Shown: positions 1 to 34,000 of the stretch, piece by piece
Layout of the letters: every line of letters starts with the position of its first letter
How positions within the stretch are numbered: position 1 is the first letter of the stretch
Origin: Treponema sp.
Lineage (GTDB): Bacteria; Spirochaetota; Spirochaetia; Treponematales; Breznakiellaceae
Direction of reading: 5' to 3'
Assembly (NCBI GenBank): GCA_031258305.1
Contig: JAIRNA010000097.1
Span: 1 to 63,226 of the forward strand
Length of the DNA stretch: 63,226 bases
The notes under the pieces: model-generated
The model's database searches: none
Seen by the model: the letters and a program-made list of their open reading frames with translations, nothing else
What the model was told of the DNA's origin: nothing
Program-made: the position numbers and the translations under genes

Positions 1-2121
1 CCGGATTATGTATTATATTCCTCTGATTCTTTTTCACCTATTGCAGTGATAGAAGCCAAAAAATCCGGTGAAAGTCTAGAAAAAGCATTAAAACAAGGAA
101 TTGAAAAATACGCTTCACCACTTGGTATAAAAATTGTATTTATAACCGATGGGACATTTATTCAAGCATATCATACAGAAGATAAAGATTATTTATATTA
201 TAATTCCGAATTGGTCACTGAATTCTTATCGGAAAAAAGATTAAGATTATTCGTTGATGGCGGCAGTAAAATATTTAGCGAACAAAAAGTGACTCATTCT
301 AAAGTAGAATTGATTAAAATATTTGAAGAAGCAAATGATATTTTACGAAAGGATGGTTTAAGCGAAGGAAAAGAGCGTTTTATCGAATTTTCAAATTTGC
401 TATTCTTAAAATTAATTAGCGATATAGAGAAACAAAGAGAGGAGAATGGAGAAAAAAGACGATTAGAACCGGTCTATTGTTGGGATGAATATAAAGAAAA
501 AAATGCTGAAGCCTTGTTTGTTCATATAAACAATATTGTTTTACCACGTTTTGATAAAGAGTATAATCATTCAAGTGATATATTTAATAAAAAATTATTA
601 ATAAATAAACCAATGCATTTGAAAGAAATCATTGATAAAATTTCAAAAATTGGTAATTTACTTGACACAAATTCCGATGTTAAAGGCGATGCTTTTGAGT
701 ATTTCTTAAAAAATTCGATAAGCGTCGGGAATGATATGGGTGAATATTTTACGCCAAGACATATCATAAAATTAATGGTAGAATTACTTGATTTGAAATT
801 TGAAGAAACCATCTACGATCCATGCTGCGGCACAGGCGGGTTTTTAATTGAGGCATTTAAGAACATTCGGAATAAATGTAAATTAACAAACGAAAATAAA
901 AAAATACTTGAAAATAAAACCGTATTTGGCCGTGAAATATCAACAACTTCAAAAATCGCAAAAATGAATATGATTATTATGGGTGATGGTCATAACAATA
1001 TAAAGCAAATGGATTCATTGGAATTTCCTGTTAAAGAAGAATATGACGTGGTGTTATCAAATTATGCTTTCTCGCAGAAAACCGATTACGGTTCATTTTA
1101 CGGGTTTAATACTATAGACGCGAATCCCATATTTTTGAAGCATATATTTGACAGTCTAAAAAAAGACGGACGTTGCGCCGTTGTTGTTCCTGAAGGCGTT
1201 TTGTTTGACACAAAAAAAGATTATATTAGAATTCGTCAAATACTTATTGAACAATCCAATGTAATCGCCGTGATTCGTTTGCATAATTTTACTTTTAAAC
1301 CTTATACCGGTCAACCGACAAGTATTATAGTCTTTAAAAAAGGGGAGCGCACTGAAAATGTGTGGTTTTTTGATGTGCAAGAAGACGGTTTTCAAAAAAC
1401 CAACAGCAAAAAGGGGCGTCGAAAAACATCCGAAGATGATTTAATTCTCTTGCGCCAGATATGGAATGATAAACTAACTACAAAAAAGTCTTTTAGCATC
1501 CCTGTAGAACGTCTTAAAAAAAATAATTTTCAATTGTCGATGGGAAATTATGAAAAAAAGAAATCCAACATAGAAACAGTATTGTTAAAAAATTTAGTAA
1601 AAAATGAAGAGATTATAATTGGTTTCACTCCTGACCGCGAGGATGATTCTTTTTGGTTTGGCGGGAAAAATATATGGGTGAAAGTCGGCGATATTCATGA
1701 TGATGATATGTATATAGAAGATTCATCAGAGAAAATTACAGACATCGCCATAAAACCAAAAAAACTATTACCCAAAGACGCGCTTCTTTTTAGTTTTAAA
1801 TTATCAATTGGTAAAACAGCCATTGCAAAAGTCCCACTGTATACCAACGAAGCTGTCGCCGGATTAATTATTGAAGATCCTATAATACGAAAATATTTAT
1901 ATTATATTTTACCGACCCTTAATTATGCTACAAATCGCGCGGCAAAAGGGGAGACGTTGAATAAATATTCTGTTGGTAATATTCAAATACCATTTGATAA
2001 AAATAATATTGAAAAATTGGTAAAAGAATTAGATAAAATTGAAAATGAACGTCAAGAACATATATCAATAAATGAAAAATTGAAAGAGAAACAATTATCA
2101 ATAATAAAGAAATTATTGTAG
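1..2121 (+). CDS. Fused restriction-modification protein, 5'-truncated by the window edge: PD-(D/E)xK nuclease motif, gamma-class N6-adenine DNA methyltransferase and one HsdS-like target recognition domain
   Basis: Frame 1 is open from nt 1 (PDYVLYSSDSFSPIAVIEAKK, an HsdR_N/Mrr-type D...ExK motif), so the track start at 46 (GTG) is internal. DPCCGTGGFLIEA is SAM motif I. VVLSNYAFS sits where NPPF motif IV is expected. The C-terminal ~190 aa (LFSFKLSIGKTAIA...YTNEAVAGLI plus a terminal coiled helix) look like half of a Type I S subunit. Very AT-rich. Confidence 0.75.
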   Translation, partial: PDYVLYSSDSFSPIAVIEAKKSGESLEKALKQGIEKYASPLGIKIVFITDGTFIQAYHTEDKDYLYYNSELVTEFLSEKRLRLFVDGGSKIFSEQKVTHSKVELIKIFEEANDILRKDGLSEGKERFIEFSNLLFLKLISDIEKQREENGEKRRLEPVYCWDEYKEKNAEALFVHINNIVLPRFDKEYNHSSDIFNKKLLINKPMHLKEIIDKISKIGNLLDTNSDVKGDAFEYFLKNSISVGNDMGEYFTPRHIIKLMVELLDLKFEETIYDPCCGTGGFLIEAFKNIRNKCKLTNENKKILENKTVFGREISTTSKIAKMNMIIMGDGHNNIKQMDSLEFPVKEEYDVVLSNYAFSQKTDYGSFYGFNTIDANPIFLKHIFDSLKKDGRCAVVVPEGVLFDTKKDYIRIRQILIEQSNVIAVIRLHNFTFKPYTGQPTSIIVFKKGERTENVWFFDVQEDGFQKTNSKKGRRKTSEDDLILLRQIWNDKLTTKKSFSIPVERLKKNNFQLSMGNYEKKKSNIETVLLKNLVKNEEIIIGFTPDREDDSFWFGGKNIWVKVGDIHDDDMYIEDSSEKITDIAIKPKKLLPKDALLFSFKLSIGKTAIAKVPLYTNEAVAGLIIEDPIIRKYLYYILPTLNYATNRAAKGETLNKYSVGNIQIPFDKNNIEKLVKELDKIENERQEHISINEKLKEKQLSIIKKLL

Positions 2122-2138
2122 TGTTGTGCGCCCACTTT

Positions 2139-2244
2139 GCCTAACGGGACTATTTACGCTTCGGGGCTAAAGCCACTCGGACTCCGTTCGACTAGGTCAG
2201 CCGCTACGCTCCATTCCCACGCTCACTCCAGAACGTTATGCGCC
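2139..2244 (+). repeat. GC-rich ~106-nt repeat copy 1 (attC-like), directly after the RM gene
   Basis: Starts GCCTAAC (fits RYYYAAC) and ends GAAC-GTTATGCGCC. It shares ordered blocks with copy 2: 18/22 at the 5' end, an identical TTCGACTAGGT, and CCCACG(C/A)T(C)CACTCCA. It has a small central hairpin, GGCT-AAA-GCC. Confidence 0.6.
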
Positions 2245-2275
2245 ATTAAATCTTTTCAAATTTTTAAAAAATATA

Positions 2276-2304
2276 TTGACGCTATGAAATATTTTTGATA
2301 TAAT
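2276..2304 (+). promoter_or_regulatory. Sigma-70-type promoter for the 173-aa ORF
   Basis: TTGACG (2276-2281), 17-nt spacer, TATAAT (2299-2304). GGAGG at 2322-2326 precedes ATG 2333. Confidence 0.6.
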
Positions 2305-2332
2305 ATATATAAATTTTTACTGGAGGAATGAA

Positions 2333-2854
2333 ATGAAAACATCTTCAAAAATTTGCTTTTTGGCATTAGCAATGATCTTTTCCGGCAACTTAGCAGCCCA
2401 GGAAATCCTAGAAACAAAAACAAATAGTAATCTGTTGTCCTACTATGACACGGAATTGTTTCAATGGAGTTATAGTATGTTTGGAGGCTTGGCGCTGAAT
2501 TTTCAGAATCAAAGTTCTGTAACCATGTATGGAATAAAGGAATCTATGAAAAATGCCTTTATTCAATATGAAGATACAAATCAACGGTATCGTTCATATC
2601 GCGGCAAAACTATCGCTGGAAATATCTTATTGTGGGGCGGCTTTGCTACTGTACTTGCCGGCGCATATGTGCCAATTTTTGGAACTTCGCAGGATAATAA
2701 CAACTATGAAAATACTTTTAAAATAAGTATTGGTGTAATGTTGGGCGGGCTTGTTACTGAAATAATAGGCGCATTTATATTACAATCAGGGCAAGAAAAT
2801 ATTTTTGATGCTGTAAATTTATATAACAGGTATAGAATAAATGATTATAAATAA
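2333..2854 (+). CDS. Hypothetical secreted/membrane protein (signal peptide plus two C-terminal hydrophobic helices)
   Basis: The N-terminus MKTSSKICFLALAMIFSGNLAAQE is signal-peptide like. Hydrophobic runs are TIAGNILLWGGFATVLAGAYVPIFG and ISIGVMLGGLVTEIIGAFIL. AT-rich like the upstream RM gene. No family recognised. Confidence 0.6.
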   Translation: MKTSSKICFLALAMIFSGNLAAQEILETKTNSNLLSYYDTELFQWSYSMFGGLALNFQNQSSVTMYGIKESMKNAFIQYEDTNQRYRSYRGKTIAGNILLWGGFATVLAGAYVPIFGTSQDNNNYENTFKISIGVMLGGLVTEIIGAFILQSGQENIFDAVNLYNRYRINDYK

Positions 2855-2876
2855 AAAGATGTAAAAAAGATTCAAC

Positions 2877-3040
2877 GGCGCATAACAGGTCTGTTTACGC
2901 TCCACCGCCATTCGGCGGCTCCGGGGTTCTATTCGACTAGGTTGGTTGCGCCTCCCACGATCCACTCCATCCATATTTTAGCGGGGCTATAAACCTGCGG
3001 TTTGTAGCCCCACTAAAATGTTATATACAGCCGGAACGTT
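2877..3040 (+). repeat. GC-rich repeat copy 2 (attC-like), interrupted by a ~67-nt palindromic insert
   Basis: Begins GGCGCATAAC, the exact reverse complement of GTTATGCGCC that ends copy 1. It follows copy 1 up to CACTCCA (2969) and resumes with GAACGTT at 3034-3040. Confidence 0.55.
2976..3018. repeat. Near-perfect 20-bp-stem palindrome nested inside repeat copy 2
   Basis: TTTTAGCGGGGCTATAAACC (2976-2995), TGC loop, GGTTTGTAGCCCCACTAAAA (2999-3018). 18 Watson-Crick pairs, one T-G and one C-A. Confidence 0.7.
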
Positions 3041-3121
3041 TTCCGCGTTGTGTTCTTTTTTAGGCACTGTGATTCCAAGAGTATACTTTCCGAAACGATT
3101 TGTCAAAATGTAACCGCCTAC

Positions 3122-3150
3122 TTGACTGTTTTTCAAATTTTTGTTATTAT
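3122..3150 (+). promoter_or_regulatory. Sigma-70-type promoter of the rplU-prp-rpmA-obg operon
   Basis: TTGACT (3122-3127), 17-nt spacer, TATTAT (3145-3150), about 30 nt upstream of ATG 3181. Confidence 0.6.
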
Positions 3151-3180
3151 ACCGTAATATTTTCTATATAAGGATTTGTT

Positions 3181-3492
3181 ATGTATGCGTTAGTAGAAAT
3201 CAAGGGTAAGCAGTACAAGGCTGAAAAAGACACCCTCTTAAAAGTAGACCTTCTCGATGTTGAACCCGGTTCAACGTTGAACATCGACTCCGTGTTGCTC
3301 CTGTCGGGCGACACAATGAGTGTGGGTGCGCCTTATGTCGCGGGTGCTTATGTTACCGCGACTGTAGAATCCCACGAAAAAGACAAGAAAATTATCGTTT
3401 TCAAGTATAAGCCCAAGAAAGACTATCGACGGAAACAAGGGCACCGGCAGCGGTATTCCGTCATCAAGATTAAAGATATCGCGGCTGTATAG
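3181..3492 (+). CDS. rplU: 50S ribosomal protein L21
   Basis: MYALVEIKGKQYKAEKD... is a typical L21 N-terminus. 103 aa, followed by prp and rpmA. Confidence 0.95.
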   Translation: MYALVEIKGKQYKAEKDTLLKVDLLDVEPGSTLNIDSVLLLSGDTMSVGAPYVAGAYVTATVESHEKDKKIIVFKYKPKKDYRRKQGHRQRYSVIKIKDIAAV

Positions 3493-8538: not shown

Positions 8539-8604
8539 ATAGGAATAGCTTTTTTGTTATCAAACATCGCTTATTGTAAGAATAAATTCACTGACTACTC
8601 CTAT
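8539..8604 (+). repeat. Intergenic hairpin element (instance L, rodZ-like|rimO)
   Basis: ATAGGAATAG 8539-8548 pairs with CTACTCCTAT 8595-8604 (9/10, the mismatch is a G-U equivalent). AT-rich core TTGTTATCAAACATCGCTTATTG. Confidence 0.4.
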
Positions 8605-25889: not shown

Positions 25890-28800
25890 GTGGAGAGAAG
25901 AGATAAAGAAAGAGTTCTTATCGGAAAAGATATTCAGAATGGAGTAGACCCGAAAGATGTGATGGAGATGCCGGACTTGATTGACATTCAGCTTTGCTCT
26001 TACGAGCGATTCCTGCAAAGGGAGCGACTGAGACGGGGTGAAAAACCGGAGAATCAGGGGCTTGAAGAAGCCTTCCGTGCAACATTTCCCATCGTGAGCC
26101 AAAATGAAGAGACGGTTCTTGAGTATGAATACTACAGTCTTGATGAAGAAGGAGTCAAATTTAACGAGCAGGAATGTCATCAAAAAGGACTCACATACGC
26201 TATTCCTCTTAAGGCGCGTATAAACCTCATCTTTCAGCAGACAGGTGAAATTCGTCAGAAAAACATCTACATGGGCGACATCCCCATTATGACGGAACGG
26301 GGAACATTCATCATCAACGGTGCTGAACGTGTCGTTGTGAGTCAAATTCACCGCTCACCAGGCGTCATCTTTAACCACGAAAAAGGTGTATTTTCTTCAC
26401 GTATCATCCCTTATCGCGGGTCGTGGCTTGAATTCGAGGTTGACCAGAAAAAGGAGATGATTTACGCCAAAATAGACCGTAAGAAACGTATACTTGGTAC
26501 CATGTTTCTCCGCGCTCTGGGCTATGGCTGCCGCGAGGAGATTATCAAGAGTTTGTATAAGACCGTTTCTTTTGAAGTAAAGGACGATGAGGAAACCAGA
26601 GTGAAAATCTCCGGCAAATCGCTTGCCGCGCCGATTTGGATTGATGCGGATGAAAACGATAAAGCCGCAGTTGACGGCAGGAAAAAACTCTACAAAGCCG
26701 GTGAAAAGATGCATCCTCATAATGTTGATGATCTGTTGGCGCATAATATTCAAGTGATAGAAGTAATAGACTTTGAGGCAAAAGATTCCCTCAATTCTCC
26801 TATGATTCTGAATTGTTTTGAACGAGAAGAAATCAAGTATCCGGAAGACGACCCGACAAAAGACGAACCCACAAAGGAAACAGCTATCAGCGAGGTTTAT
26901 AAAGTGCTGATGCCCGGAGATTCTATTACCGTTGAAGCTGCGGAAAAAGACCTTATGACCCTATTCTTCAAGATATGGCGCTACGATCTTGGCAAGGTAG
27001 GGCGTTACAAGCTTAACAAGAAATTCAACCTCGAAATACCGATGGATACTTTCACATTGACCAAAGCTGACATCATCGCCACAATGAAATTTCTCATTAA
27101 AGTCTACATCGGCGAGGAAAACATAGATGATATTGACCATATGGGCAACCGGCGCGTGCGCTCTGTAGGTGAACTCATGACTGTCGAGATGAAAACCGCC
27201 TTTACACGCATAGAGAGAATCGCTAAAGAGCGTATGAATCTCAAGGAAATAGAAACCATCAAGCCCCAAGACCTTATCTCCATCAAGCCGATTGTGGCCG
27301 CAATCAAAGAATTTTTCGGTTCCAGTCAACTGTCCCAGTTTATGGACCAGGTGAACCCGCTCGCGGAACTCACCCACAAACGCAGGTTAAACGCCTTGGG
27401 ACCGGGCGGTTTGAGCAGGGACCGAGCCGGCTTTGAAGTGCGCGACGTGCATTATACGCATTATGGGAGAATGTGTCCGATAGAGACTCCAGAAGGACCG
27501 AACATCGGATTGATTGTTTCGCTGGCAAACTACACTCGCGTCAACGAGTACGGTTTTCTGGAGTCGCCCTACCGCCGCGTGGTAAACGGTGTTGCCGCCA
27601 AAGATATCGACTATCTTTCCGCAATGGAGGAAGACCGCTATTTCATAGCGCAAGCTTCGGCAAAACTCAATGCAGACGGTTCTTTCGCCGACCATCAGGT
27701 TTCATGCCGAAAGCAAGGTGATTACACGAGCCAACCACCCAAGGAAATAGATTATATGGACGTGTCCCCGCGGCAAATCATCTCGGTGTCCGCATCCCTC
27801 ATCCCTTTTCTGGAACACGACGATGCCAACCGTGCGCTCATGGGTTCCAACATGCAACGCCAGGCGGTGCCGCTGGTGTTTCCTGAAGCGCCTCGTGTGG
27901 GTACCGGTATGGAGGGCAAATGCGCCTATGATTCAGGTGTGCTTATCAAGGCTCGGCGAGACGGTGTGGTCATCCGCGTGACATGTAGTGAAATTATCAT
28001 CCAGCCAGACGATCGACAAACTAAGTCGCCGGAAACGGACAAACGCGGATTTGATGTCTACAAATTGCTAAAATACCAGCGGACCAATCAAGACACATGC
28101 TACAACCAGCGCCCCATTGTGAAACTTGGTGCCCGTGTGAGCGCCGGGCAGGTGATTGCGGACGGTCCCGCAACCCAAAATGGAGAACTTGCCTTAGGGC
28201 GTAACTTGCTCGTGGGCTTTATGCCGTGGAACGGGTACAATTACGAAGACTCAATCCTCATTTCACAGAGAGTTGTAAGAGAGGATATGTTTACATCTGT
28301 CCATATAAAGGAATTCCCGATTGAGATTAGAGAGACGAAACTCGGTCCCGAAAGAATAACCCGCGACATACCAAATATGAGTGAAAAGAGCCTGGACAGT
28401 CTTGATGCTGAAGGCGTCATCATCGTCGGCGCAAAGGTGTGGGCAGGCGACATTTTGGTCGGTAAGGTTACGCCCAAGAGCGAAACCGAAACCACGCCGG
28501 AATTCAAGCTGTTAAACTCAATTTTCGGCGAAAAGGCGAAAGATGTACGAGACACATCGTTGCGTGTACCACACGGTATCGACGGTACGGTGATTGAGAT
28601 TCAGCGGTTGAGTAGAGCCAACGGAGACGACTTGAACCCAGGTGTCAATGAAGTCGTCAAGGTGTTGATTGCCACCAAGCGCAAGCTCCGCGAAGGCGAC
28701 AAAATGGCTGGCCGCCACGGCAATAAAGGCGTCGTCGCCCGTGTTTTGCCGGAAGAAGATATGCCCTATATGGATGATGGTACTCCGCTTGACCTGTGCC

Positions 28801-29456
28801 TCACCCCGCTTGGTGTGCCGTCCCGCATGAACATCGGTCAGCTTTTGGAAACAGAGTTAAGCTGGGCGGGTATCAAACTGAATGAATGGTATGCAACGCC
28901 GGTGTTCCAGTCTCCCACAACCGATCAGATAGCCGAAAAGCTGAAAGAAGCGGGCGTGTGCAATGAGGATGAGCATCTTCGTACCAAGACCTATCTGCGC
29001 GATGGGCGTACTGGCGAGCGATTTGTCAACCCGATTTTCTGTGGGGTCATCTATTTCCTGAAACTGCACCACCTCGTGGATGACAAAATGCACGCGCGTT
29101 CCACCGGTCCTTACTCGCTGGTGACGCAGCAACCCCTTGGTGGAAAAGCGCAATTCGGAGGGCAGAGGCTCGGTGAAATGGAGGTATGGGCGCTTGAGGC
29201 TTACGGCGCGGCAAATACCTTGCAGGAACTACTTACCATAAAGTCGGACGATATGACCGGGCGTTCTAAGGTTTACGAAGCCATCGTTAAAGGTGAACCA
29301 TCCACGACCGCAGGTGTTCCTGAATCGTTCAACGTGCTGGTGCAAGAGCTTCGTGGACTTGCCATGGATTTGACCATATTTGACGACCACGACAAACAAA
29401 TTGCTCTCACGGAACGCGACGAAGAGATGATTGAAAAAGCGGGAAGCAATTTCTAG
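25890..29456 (+). CDS. rpoB: DNA-directed RNA polymerase subunit beta
   Basis: 1188 aa with conserved blocks ([46 protein letters not shown]). GTG start after AGGGAGGG. Confidence 0.98.
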
Positions 29457-29623: not shown

Positions 29624-32600
29624 ATGAGAGACATACAAGATTTCAATTGGATACGGATACAGTTGGCTTCGCCTGAAAAGATTCGGGCGTGGTCTTATGG
29701 GGAAGTAAAAAAACCTGAAACCATCAACTACCGGACCTTGCGCCCGGAAAAGGATGGGCTCTTCTGTGAGCGAATATTCGGCACCACGAAGGAGTGGGAG
29801 TGTTATTGCGGAAAGTTCAAATCCATCCGTTATAAGGGCGTAATTTGTGACCGGTGCGGTGTGGAAGTAACTCATTTCAAAGTGCGACGCGAGCGCATGG
29901 GACATATCGAGCTTGCCGCGCCCGTTTCGCATATATGGTATTATCGATCCGTACCGAGCAGAATGGGACTCCTCCTCGATATGACGATGTCCAATCTCCG
30001 ATCCGTGCTTTACTACGAAAAGTATGTGGTGATTGAGCCGGGTGACACGGATCTCAAGAAGATGCAGATTCTCACAGAGGAAGAATACGCGGAGGCACAA
30101 GAGCGTTACAGCGGCGGTTTTACCGCAGGTATGGGGGCAGAAGCTGTTAAAACCTTGCTCGAAAATCTAGACCTTAACGCGATGGCCGCAGAACTCCGTG
30201 AAAAAATGATAGAAAAAGGCATAAAATCCGACAAACGCCTGTTGAGACGTATCGAGATTGTGGAGAATTTCCGCGCGTCTGACAACAAGCCGGAGTGGAT
30301 GATTATGGATGTGATTCCTGTGATTCCGCCTGATCTCCGCCCCATGGTGCAACTCGAAGGCGGTAGGTTCGCCACCAGTGACCTGAATGATCTTTATCGG
30401 CGTGTCATCAACCGCAACAATCGGCTCCACAGGCTCCAAGCCATGAGCGCGCCGGAAATCATTATCCGCAATGAAAAACGGATGCTTCAAGAGGCGGTTG
30501 ATGCGCTTTTTGACAATTCCAAGAAAAAGCGTGTGGTAAAAGGCGCAAGCAACCGCCCGCTCAAATCCATTTCTGATATGCTCAAGGGCAAACAGGGACG
30601 TTTCCGTCAGAACCTGCTTGGTAAGCGCGTTGACTATTCCGGGCGCTCGGTCATCACGGTCGGTCCGAATCTGAAAATGTGGCAGTGCGGATTGCCGGTT
30701 AAGATGGCGCTGGAACTTTTCAAACCCTTCATAATGAAGCGTCTCGTTGACAAAGGCGTTGTCTACAACATAAAGAAGGCGAAACTGCTCGTGGAGCAGG
30801 AAACGCCGGAAGTTTTTGCAGTTCTGGACGATGTGGTGAGAGAACATCCTGTTCTGTTGAACCGCGCTCCGACCCTGCACCGTTTGGGTATTCAGGCGTT
30901 TGAACCAGTACTTGTGGAAGGTAAAGCTATCCGTCTGAATCCGCTTGTGTGCCACGCCTTCAACGCGGACTTTGATGGGGACCAGATGGCGATTCACGTA
31001 CCGCTTACCCAAGCCGCGCAAATGGAGTGTTGGACGCTTATGCTTTCTGTTCGCAACCTGCTCGACCCGGCAAATGGTAAGACCATCGTATATCCTTCGC
31101 AGGATATGGTATTGGGATGCAACTTCCTCACCCGTCCCAAGCCAAAATCTGATGACAAGGACAAGCAGGCAAAAGGGCAGGGGCGCTATTATTCCAGCTA
31201 TGAAGAAATGCTGATGGCGATTGACGCGAAGTCGCTCGACTGGGAGGCATTGATTTTTACTCATCCCACCAAATTTCCTGTATGGGAAAAAGCGGGTAAA
31301 GAAGCGATGAACAAGAAAGGTGAGGCGATTTCTAAAGATGATTACATCGAGACGACCGCCGGACGACTCGCATTCAACGATGAAATGCCGTCGGAGATTC
31401 CTTTCATCAACTATGAATTGAAAGATAAAGAGTTACGCGCTCTCATTGAGAAAATATTCGAGACCAAAGGTTCGTGGGTAACCGTGCAAATGGTTGACGC
31501 AATCAAAGATACTGGTTATAAATACGCTACGCTTTTCGGCGCGACTATAGGCATTGACGATATCGTCGTACCGAAAGAAAAACCCGATATGCTCGACAAG
31601 GCGAACATGGAAGTCGAAGCTATACAGAAACAGTACGAACAAGGCGTAATTACCAGTCAGGAACGCTACGACCGCGTGATTGACGTTTGGAACAAGTGTA
31701 ACGAAGACTTAACAGCTATCGTGATGAAGACTCTGGAGGCGGACAAGGATGGGTTTAACTCGATTCATATGATGGCGAACTCTGGAGCGCGTGGTAGCAA
31801 GACGCAGATCCGCCAGCTCGCTGGTATGCGAGGGCTTTTATCCAAGCCGAATCAAGAAATCATCGAATTGCCCGTGCGTGCTAACTTCAAAGAAGGGTTG
31901 TCGGTCATTGAGTTTTTTATTTCCACAAATGGCGCACGCAAAGGCTTAACCGATACGGCGCTGAAAACGTCCGAAGCTGGGTACCTGACCCGCCGTCTCG
32001 TTGACATTGCCCAAGACGTGGTAATAAACCAAGAGGATTGCGGCACCATCAACGGCATTGCCTACACTGCTATTAAGGACGGTGAAGAAGTCGTCGAATC
32101 CCTACACGATCGCATCGTAGGACGTTATACATCCGAGCGGATCAAGCACCCAATCACCGGCGAAATCATTGTTGACATAAATGATGAAATCACCGAAGAA
32201 CTCACGAAAAAGATTGACGAAGCCGGTGTGGAGTCGGTGTCCATCAGGACGGTTTTGACCTGTGAAGCCCAGCATGGGGTTTGTCAGAAATGTTATGGCA
32301 GAAACCTCGCCACGAACCGGCACGTTGACATCGGCGAAGCGGTCGGCATCATAGCGGCCCAGTCCATCGGTCAGCCCGGCACCCAGCTCACAATGCGGAC
32401 ATTTCACATCGGCGGCGCGGCGTCTACAAAAGGCGAAGACAATCGTATCTATCTCAAGTATCCAGTCTACATCAAGGATATTTCTGGTGTTCATGTGGAG
32501 ATTAAGGATGGTCATTGGCTTTTCACCCGTAAAGGACAGATGGTTGTCAATAAGGTTATGGGTGAGTTCAAGCTGGAAGAAGGTGACGAAGTCCTTATCG

Positions 32601-34000
32601 AGGACAATCAGCGGGTCTACCGCGGGGTTCCGGTGATCCAGCGGGGCGATGAGGAAATTCTCGCATCTGAAAACGCCTATGCATTAAAAATCGAAAGAAC
32701 TCTTTACCTGATCGGGCAGGAGCAGAAGCTCGAAATCCGCAATGGGTCGGAGGTCGGGGTGAAAAAAGGCGACATCGTTCTGGCAGAGAAAACCATCGCC
32801 ACGTTCGACCCGTTCTCAGACCCGATTATTGCCGAAAAATCCGGCGCCGTACGCTATGAGGACATCATAGATGGTACGACCATGAAGATAGAATTTGACG
32901 AGAATGGCAACTCAGAAAAGCGCATCACGGATTTGCAATTGGAGAATAAACAGCCTCGTATCGTCATAACGAACATGGAAAACGAGGAAATATCTTACTT
33001 CTTGCCGGGCGGCGCCATTATTAATGTGGACGAAGGCGACCATATCGAAGCCGGACGTACCATTGCCAAGATCCTGAAAGAATCGGCAAAGGCGAGCGAT
33101 ATCACGAGTGGTTTACCCCGTGTGAGCGAGCTTTTCGAAGCGCGCAGGCCAAAAAGTCCATCCGTGCTTGCCCAAGTGTCCGGTACCGTGCATTTCAAAG
33201 GTACCGTCAAAGGGAAGCGCCAGGTCGTTATTGAGGATTATTTCGGCAAGGAGTGTAAGCACCTTATTCCGGTCGTCAAACGCCTGCTCGTGCGAGATGG
33301 CGATACGGTCGATGCCGGCGAACCGCTCTGCGTCGGTTCTGCAGATCCTCACGAGGTCCTGCATATTATGGGCGAAAGTTACCTGCACCGCTATCTGATG
33401 GACGAAATTCAGCAGGTTTATCGGTTACAGGGCGTTACCATCAACGATAAGCATATCGGCGTCATCATCCGCCAGATGATGCGTAAGGTTTCCATCATTG
33501 CGGTCGGGGACACGCGATTCATCTACGGTCAGCTTGTCGATAAATACCAATTCCACGAAGAGAACAACCGTGTCATCAGCGAGGGCGGTCAACCGGCTGT
33601 TGCCCGTCCGGTGTTCCAGGGCATTACTCGCGCCAGCCTCAACATCGATTCGTTCCTTTCGGCCGCGAGCTTCCAGGAAACTACTCGCGTCCTTACCAAC
33701 GCGGCCATCGCCGGATCCACAGATCTCCTGCATGGCTTAAAGGAAAATATCATTATCGGGCATCCGATTCCGGCTGGTACCGGTATGAAACGCTACAGGG
33801 AGGTGAAATTATTCGGACAAGAGAATCAGGACCTGGATGCGGAAATGGAGGAGATCCTCGAAAGAAGACGGCTTGAGCAGGTCGTAGAGCCGGAAGGACT
33901 CTTAGATTTGACCTACGACGATGATGACGATCTTGATGACGATCTTCCGCCTGAAATAGACGATATTATCGACGACGAAGATGGAGACGAAGACGAATAA
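29624..34000 (+). CDS. rpoC: DNA-directed RNA polymerase subunit beta' with an acidic C-terminal tail
   Basis: 1458 aa. Zn finger [20 protein letters not shown], catalytic NADFDGDQM, and a [27 protein letters not shown] tail. Confidence 0.98.

Follow-up and report, generated by a model that had tools for sequence, protein, structure and literature searches.

The first 3,040 nucleotides (nt) of a 63,226-nt contig of Treponema sp. (JAIRNA010000097.1) carry two AT-rich genes, each followed by a GC-rich repeat, and end shortly before rplU, which raises the question of what kind of element such a block represents. The entire contig, at its full length, is called the window here, and its left edge falls inside the first unit, cassette 1. 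A sequence-only reading had taken the two genes for gene cassettes, the repeats for attC-like sites and the block for the distal end of a chromosomal integron of the type documented in Treponema denticola and its relatives. The attC-like sites and the array end stand, but an ordinary T. denticola-like integron does not. Very probably, positions 1-3040 close, on the promoter-distal side, a chromosomal array of mobile cassettes that belongs to an integron-like system of termite-gut Treponema, and this system is not a canonical integron. The observations that carry this reading concern a family of sites, the arrays they form, the rule by which adjacent sites are joined, the position of the crossover, a conserved fold and the adjacency of a tyrosine recombinase that lacks the integrase-specific insert.

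Site family, cassette junctions and fold

A three-block pattern matched at least 120 contigs of a metagenome collection, all from a handful of Joint Genome Institute (JGI) samples, one of which is named in the record of a termite-gut metagenome-assembled genome (MAG). A profile of 190 positions, flanks included, was built from 48 full copies and retrieved at least 296 copies on at least 122 contigs, the majority of them from termite-gut metagenomes. Within the window it detects no more than the two repeats, named W1 (nhmmer, profile positions 5-108, E = 1.6e-14) and W2 (positions 3-186, E = 4.4e-30), the next best match having E = 2; with the same architecture recurring hundreds of times elsewhere, the repeats are beyond chance, as had been proposed. 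Family members are about 185 nt long, with about 165-185 nt from R'' to R', and their AAC and GTT triplets are nearly invariant (76 family members). Among the matches listed, 97 contigs hold several copies, which all lie on one strand in 91 of the 97, at a median start-to-start spacing of 944 nt; 13 copies lie within 11.2 kb on one contig (L141). A repeat scattered around the genome without cassette-like spacing had been named as the alternative to check, and the copies instead line up in arrays on one strand, spaced as cassettes are. Viral contigs, scanned for the site as well, contained 0 matches, and a 'Treponema' match (L056) from a loose 17-base gapped pattern was discarded as a chance match inside a gene. 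Alignment A3 (columns 80-142) separates two sub-families of sites by their central stems, TTCGGCTAGGTCA...TTCCCACGCC and CGAAAAACCGCAG...TGCGGTTTTTC; both co-occur in the L141 array, where the central stem is kept despite wholesale sequence replacement.

The joining of adjacent sites follows a rule that was first noticed in the window, where GTTATGCGCC (2235-2244), once reverse-complemented, is identical to GGCGCATAAC (2877-2886). This inverted match extends beyond 10 nt, to 20 of 22 positions (2235-2256 with 2865-2886). For the family, the 10 bases after the GTT of site n were compared with the reverse complement of the 10 bases before the AAC of site n+1, and 8-9 of 10 positions agree in 83 of 98 adjacent pairs, compared with means of 5.4 for random pairs and 5.6 for own flanks. 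Complementarity between an R'' arm and the first bases of the cassette to which it belongs, as had been claimed, hence holds for the window as for the family, and the inverted R''/R' pair is present in both window sites (GCCTAAC and GTTATGC in W1, GCATAAC and GTT in W2). The resulting R stem is ~17 bp long, each cassette carrying both halves, and is Watson-Crick paired in at least 94% of cases out to position 14, save position 7 (71%) and position 8. The latter is never Watson-Crick paired (0/83 cassettes), with A opposite C on the top strand and T.G on the bottom strand, and the last cassette of the window keeps this mispair of the family (A2245 opposite C2876).

Natural recombinants locate the exchange. 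Two pairs of contigs, L199 with L144 and L134 with L196, are 99.8% identical over one or two cassettes plus the next site, and in both pairs the similarity stops directly past ...ACGTTA, the sequences beyond being unrelated; judged by these breakpoints, the exchange occurs within AACGTTA. Four independent lines, namely the junction rule, the breakpoints at ACGTTA, the conserved fold and the cargo and layout of the cassettes, identify the repeats, on sequence grounds, as cassette recombination sites of the attC kind. A further contig (L055), which BLAST singled out as the one true relative among the matches of the loose pattern, has a nucleotidyltransferase/HEPN pair between two copies, and here too the closing bases of the first copy, GTTAGACGAA, match the opening of the second exactly when reverse-complemented. 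This 2.9-kb contig (JAIRVH010000158.1) is binned as 'Sphingobacterium sp.', the array is Treponema-type, and the contig is probably mis-binned; a DDE_Tnp_1 transposase gene (L055:180-1475) lies immediately past the last array site, so that an insertion sequence adjoins the array.

The interior of the site folds in a conserved manner. The RNAalifold consensus of 76 diverse copies consists of an inner (L) stem, a central stem and the basal part of a long hairpin, and 20 of its 23 predicted pairs show compensatory changes. Paired combinations fill 94.9% of the cells of the alignment, compared with 74.8% in shuffles and 35-45% with the partners slid, while two-sided changes are found in 303 cells, compared with 69 in shuffles; the observed values were reached by 0 of 500 shuffles. 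Four stems covary strongly, namely the L stem, the central P3 stem (two helices) and the base of hairpin 2. The L stem (helix 1) is 95% paired, shows compensatory changes in 4 of 6 pairs and is bordered by spacers of 4 nt and 6-7 nt; its variants include GGTATACG/CGTATACC, TTGTATACG/CGTATACAA, CTGTTTACG/CGTAAACAG and GGTAACTG/CAGTTACC. When the excised, circular form of the cassettes was rebuilt, the bottom strand was computed to fold better than the top strand in 45/45 cassettes (mean -6.7 kcal/mol), and the excised form to be more stable than the integrated form in 41/45, by 9 kcal/mol.

The recombinase at the array heads and the rival readings

What defines an integron is its integrase, which reads the bulged bases of folded attC sites by means of an I2 insert. 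In L240, the gene of a tyrosine recombinase of 394 amino acids (aa) lies 1 kb upstream of the first site and on the same strand, with one cassette (encoding an MntP-like protein) between recombinase and site. Its homologues form a large family of 380-430 aa, in which the proteins with a named source are 'site-specific integrase [Treponema sp.]' from MAGs. Seven homologue loci were compared, in which the upstream housekeeping genes differ each time and the contigs end 0.3-6 kb downstream; contig ends at this distance from the recombinase are seen in L242, L243, L245, L246 and L250-L254. The five loci with enough sequence (L240, L242, L245, L246 and L250) all have a same-strand site downstream, and in all five visible array heads the adjacent gene encodes the ~390-aa insert-less recombinase. 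A G/TTA junction followed by a typical cassette start occurs 150-500 nt past the recombinase stop codon in seven loci, and L240 and L242 have a conserved region in common before it; this junction between the recombinase gene and the first cassette is a putative attI.

The recombinase family keeps all catalytic residues (R, K, H-x-x-R, H and Y) and is collinear with XerD and XerA, and its alignment contains no IntI-specific (I2, intI_Cterm) segment. Six members score 187-206 bits with the integron integrase model TIGR02249, compared with a cut-off of 265, the match breaking at model position ~172-177 of 315; the same members reach 206-215 bits with XerA_Arch (cut-off 220) and 170-184 bits with XerC/XerD (cut-offs 330-335). 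The closest solved structure is Vibrio cholerae IntI4 (2a3v), yet the alignment splits, so that the stretch with the IntI-specific region (chain residues 174-239) is matched by just 24 query residues; with a full-length AlphaFold model, XerA (5hxy) and IntI4 (2a3v) are equal best matches. The IntI-specific region was sought by tblastn in all compared loci and in the window, and none was found, nor was a recombinase found in the 63-kb window. A genome survey came to the conclusion that insert-less tyrosine recombinases near attC sites have fewer than three sites beside them and are no integron integrases (Cury 2016; PMC4889954), and by this accepted criterion, as applied to its sequence, the ~390-aa recombinase is not an integron integrase either.

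Residues 1-78 of the recombinase are predicted to form a confident beta/alpha domain (predicted local distance difference test, pLDDT, 83; P0005, L242:10001-10234), followed by a disordered linker. For this domain no relative was found in Pfam, and the best match of a PDB structure search was not significant (E = 0.13). Among the weak top structure matches is the domain by which MutS binds mismatches (TMq 0.44-0.54, E = 0.4-1.3), which, though not significant, is curious beside the invariant mispair of the R stem.

It is unlikely that the arrays are those of a canonical integron, in which the sites would be long attC sites, a true I2-bearing IntI would be encoded upstream or elsewhere and the 390-aa recombinase would be incidental. 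The R/L architecture, the AAC/GTT triplets, the junction rule and the cargo would all fit, and the upstream sequence of the window is missing past the contig edge, but the adjacency of the insert-less recombinase in all five visible array heads, the tblastn result and the low, broken TIGR02249 matches argue against it. So does the attC covariance model R1, built from five of eight representative T. denticola sites, which matched neither the window nor any of nine array loci at E <= 10; once the filters were removed, its sole match was hairpin 2 of W2, generic, out of register and at 12.8 bits. With T. denticola attC sequences unrelated to the termite sites and a recombinase without the IntI region, the proposal of an integron of the documented Treponema type is not supported.

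Recombination of double-stranded sites by an Xer-type enzyme, as in dif modules, with the stems being incidental, is very unlikely. It would account for a recombinase that is collinear with XerD/XerA and lacks I2, and for the R arms (GCGCATAA/TTATGCGAAAT), which may resemble the arms of Escherichia coli dif. However, the arms lie ~170 nt apart, so that no duplex core site is possible, four stems are maintained by compensatory change, the excised form is better folded than the integrated one by the difference given above, and the sites of an array share one orientation (91 of 97 contigs among the matches listed), unlike the alternating pdif sites. Hardly credible, finally, is a dispersed structured repeat (similar to repetitive extragenic palindromic elements, REP, or miniature inverted-repeat transposable elements, MITEs) or an RNA element of 3' untranslated regions or terminators, since the pairing of GTT and AAC flanks between copies 0.7-1.3 kb apart and the synteny breaks exactly at ACGTTA contradict it, no Rfam match and no further copies in 63 kb are found, while in its favor are the GC-rich, structured nature of the sites, their constant position downstream of open reading frames (ORFs) and the similarity of hairpin 2 to a terminator stem.

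Several points weigh against the reading as a mobile-cassette array of an integron-like system. The metagenome sample (at least 120 contigs) is biased, and the window itself has just two sites, one of which is defective. As the contig starts inside cassette 1, neither a recombinase nor an attI nor further copies can be demonstrated for the window genome. The link between recombinase and sites is one of adjacency in five related loci, most contigs are short, and a canonical IntI may be encoded elsewhere in these genomes. The L stem has no consistent bulged (extrahelical) bases, unlike classical attC sites, and the internal stems have no excess of G.T over A.C pairs (~35 compared with 32, own tally of pair types), hence the case for a strand preference is made by the mispair in the R stem and by calculated energies.

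In the array reading, a cassette consists of a single AT-rich gene or a few of them, in most cases under a promoter of their own, and ends in a ~185-nt GC-rich site. For its mobility the following mechanism can be proposed. The ~390-aa recombinase would use the cassette site in the form of its folded bottom strand, excise cassettes as circles and insert them at its attI-like site, and its action without I2 might perhaps be aided by the N-terminal domain and the invariant R-stem mispair. Whether termite treponemes thus possess a second kind of integron, with a dedicated Xer-like, I2-less recombinase working on folded, single-stranded, mispair-marked sites of ~185 nt, is a proposition for which the arguments on either side are about evenly balanced; it would be either a living intermediate on the proposed path from Xer to IntI or a case in which cassette arrays arose independently. 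The arrays, with up to 13 cassettes and every genetic signature of cassette exchange, adjoin a Xer-like enzyme that has no insert. Should this enzyme catalyze the exchange, a cassette system can do without the I2 domain, the question of integron origin becomes directly testable, and finders that depend on the IntI signature would not call these platforms complete integrons. In practical terms, the repeats break short-read MAG assemblies of termite-gut Treponema at array positions.

The array end in the window and cassette contents

Both GC-rich repeats are present in the window, one behind each AT-rich gene (Table 1). As claimed, their 5' blocks agree at 18 of 22 positions (GCCTAACGGGACTATTTACGCT and GCATAACAGGTCTGTTTACGCT), the identical block TTCGACTAGGT occurs exactly at 2187-2197 and 2932-2942 and at no other place in 63 kb, the different central hairpins (GGCT-AAA-GCC and CCGCC-ATTC-GGCGG) are both there, and GAACGTT closes both copies. 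The further shared block, CCCACG.T.CACTCCA, holds for W2, while W1 is one base shorter there (CCCACGCTCACTCCA). The two genes had been put at 20-30% G+C; they are AT-rich indeed, but the measured figure is 31%, compared with 54-57% for the repeats and 47.6% for the remaining contig.

Table 1. Coordinates of the array end and its surroundings in the window.
Feature	Positions	Strand	Basis
Cargo of cassette n-1: type IIG restriction-modification enzyme, 3' part (706 codons)	1-2121	+	Pfam
Site W1, recombination site with internal deletion	2134-2244	+	nhmmer, alignment
Left half of the R stem of the last cassette	2235-2256	+	pairs with 2865-2886, 20/22
Last cassette, 803 nt, from TT of the W1 GTT to G of the W2 GTT	2236-3038	+	boundary rule of the family
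Cassette promoter, sigma-70-type, TTGACG-17-TATAAT	2276-2304	+	11/12 matches, TG extension
Cassette cargo, 173-aa protein	2333-2854	+	ORF; no Pfam match
Right half of this R stem, with R'' GCATAAC at 2880-2886	2865-2886	+	inverted-repeat match
Site W2, full-length recombination site	2873-3047	+	nhmmer, fold, row of alignment A3
Array/chromosome junction	3041-3093	+	sequence not common to relatives
rplU promoter-like site (3122-3150) and rplU (3181-3492)	3122-3492	+	first core gene past the array

The two copies are not equivalent. W2 has all elements of the family, namely R'', L'' (CTGTTTACG, 2891-2899), hairpin 1 (2905-2918), TTCGACTAGGT, CCCACG (2954-2959), hairpin 2 (2976-3018), L' (TATATACAG, 3022-3030), the spacer CCGGAAC and GTT (3038-3040); from R'' to R' it measures 161 nt, and its L stem is partly degenerate. 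Its hairpin 2 region (2975-3020) forms a perfect 15-bp stem plus an inner stem, in a sequence unlike hairpin 2 of most family members. W1 had been described as a copy of a ~100-nt repeat; it is no shorter complete unit and covers only profile positions 5-108 of 190, followed by GAACGTT. It contains R'' (GCCTAAC, 2139-2145), an L''-like segment (CTATTTACG, 2150-2158), hairpin 1 and TTCGACTAGGT, then CCCACG..CACTCCA, GAAC and GTT (2235-2237, within GTTATGC), while hairpin 2 and the L' arm are missing in a gap of ~70 nt in the profile alignment. Folding of each repeat, which had been suggested as a check, succeeded for W2 (z = -4.3) and failed for W1 (z = +2.0, either strand), because W1 has lost ~70 nt that comprise hairpin 2 and the 3' half of its inner stem. 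Judged by this alignment, W1 is a deletion derivative of a full site, and the restriction-modification cassette, whose site has no L' arm, is probably no longer mobile.

Other origins of the repeats were considered. Rfam gave nothing for the window repeats at gathering and permissive thresholds, and no attachment site derived from a tRNA or transfer-messenger RNA (tmRNA) was found there. A MITE or insertion sequence with 22-bp terminal inverted repeats was rejected, as both copies are complete direct repeats and not a split target, and coding sequence inside the repeats was rejected on account of stop codons in all frames.

The restriction-modification gene runs off the start of the contig and encodes the Pfam domains HSDR_N, N6_Mtase (E = 1.3e-54) and Methylase_S. 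The 173-aa protein of the last cassette has a signal-like N-terminal segment and hydrophobic C-terminal segments, and a search of Pfam found no family for it; neither of the two cargo proteins has close relatives in the other array loci compared. In a close relative of the window host (L248:13985-16435), a type IIG restriction-modification gene with the same domain architecture and 28% identity has an ordinary chromosomal position with no site.

The host is a termite-gut Treponema. The array end adjoins rplU, as had been proposed, since W2 and the junction are followed by rplU as the first core gene. The 90% identity of L248 and L249 to the window begins at position 3094. A comparison of the region upstream of rplU for an empty site, which the sequence-only reading had called for, showed hexokinase directly upstream in L248 and L249 and an HD-domain gene directly upstream in a more distant relative, with no site in either case, and therefore the position of the array is lineage-specific. 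The left part of the array is lost at an assembly break. Farther into the window, the intergenic motif GGGAGTAGnTTTTTTGTTAnnAAAC is dispersed in both orientations, at 8542(+), 23223(+), 24516(+), 25824(-), 29545(-) and 54541(-), and several copies flank two very long ORFs, 25890-29456 and 29624-34000.

Across the family, 151 complete cassettes were analyzed, with a median of 826 nt between sites, and the largest ORF lies on the strand of the site in 136 of 146. The 130 cargo proteins fall into 109 Pfam families, with GNAT acetyltransferases, methyltransferases and components of toxin-antitoxin systems in the lead; ParE, PIN, HepT, BrnA, APH and NUDIX are included. The promoter of the second window cassette was found where it had been seen, but it is no peculiarity of that cassette, since a near-consensus promoter within the first 200 nt is the rule across the family, in 88/151 cassettes (58%) compared with 11 and 22 (7% and 15%) in the controls. 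Treponema cassettes have been described as being without promoters, apart from those with toxin-antitoxin genes (PMC4909258).

Comparison with known systems

Full-text searches of the accessible literature retrieved no account of integron-like arrays in termite-gut bacteria, and nothing comparable on integron-like arrays with Xer-type recombinases or on these ~185-nt sites. Treponema integrons have been the subject of a single study, which found no integron in two cultured termite treponemes (Wu 2013; PMC3607928).

One close parallel is with sedentary chromosomal integrons such as the Vibrio superintegron with its VCR-type attC sites. These likewise have long same-strand arrays of short cassettes, headed by a tyrosine recombinase and an attI-like junction, a cargo rich in acetyltransferases and toxin-antitoxin genes, and a structured site with R''...AAC and GTT...R', a second (L) stem and an unpaired spacer, in which R'' is complementary to the start of the cassette and the exchange occurs at G/TT. 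In contrast, the termite recombinase lacks I2, has an extra N-terminal domain and is oriented as the cassettes are. The termite sites are longer, attC sizes on record being 57-141 nt (PMC4909258) compared with 161 nt for W2 and about 165-185 nt for the family, and they have a four-way branched interior with conserved blocks and no evident bulges, but one invariant mispair in the ~17-bp R stem. While the cassettes of integrons are promoterless and served by Pc, 58% of the termite cassettes carry a promoter.

The T. denticola-type 'reverse' integron (Coleman 2004; Wu 2013, PMC3607928) shares the genus, the chromosomal array, the AT-rich cassettes and the position of the recombinase on the strand of the cassettes (here in L240, L242, L245, L246 and L250). 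Its attC sites are 63-68 nt long (up to 132 nt; PMC3607928), in sequences unrelated to the termite sites, and the IntI of T. denticola, T. vincentii, T. succinifaciens and T. brennaborense has the IntI-specific segment (...HEADCKE-GFGSVPLPFALAKKYPNA...) that the termite family lacks.

Taken alone, the window resembles a cluster of attC sites lacking integron-integrases (CALIN; Cury 2016, PMC4889954), as its two attC-like sites lie less than 1 kb apart and the sequence at hand contains no integrase; however, the contig is cut inside the array, and a recombinase is present beside related arrays. Acinetobacter pdif modules are gene modules, often with toxin-antitoxin or resistance genes, that are bounded by Xer-type sites as well, but their sites are 28-bp duplexes in alternating orientation on plasmids and are served by the host XerCD, while here folded 185-nt sites form same-strand arrays. 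From the XerC, XerD and XerA resolvases themselves, the termite recombinase is set apart by scores under the curated cut-offs and by its extra 78-aa N-terminal domain.

The origin of integrons from Xer-like enzymes is an open question, with no Xer-type enzyme known to have an I2-like domain, and the phage CTX-phi, whose bulge-free folded site is recombined by XerCD, has been discussed as a possible evolutionary link (Escudero 2016; PMC4792948). The termite system is similar to CTX-phi in that an I2-less Xer-type enzyme would act on a folded hairpin that mimics a duplex and has no bulges. The substrate of CTX-phi is single-stranded, and single-strand action in the termite arrays would be the counterpart of this. 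CTX-phi borrows the host XerCD to bring a phage genome into dif, whereas here a dedicated recombinase lies beside an array of many cassettes.

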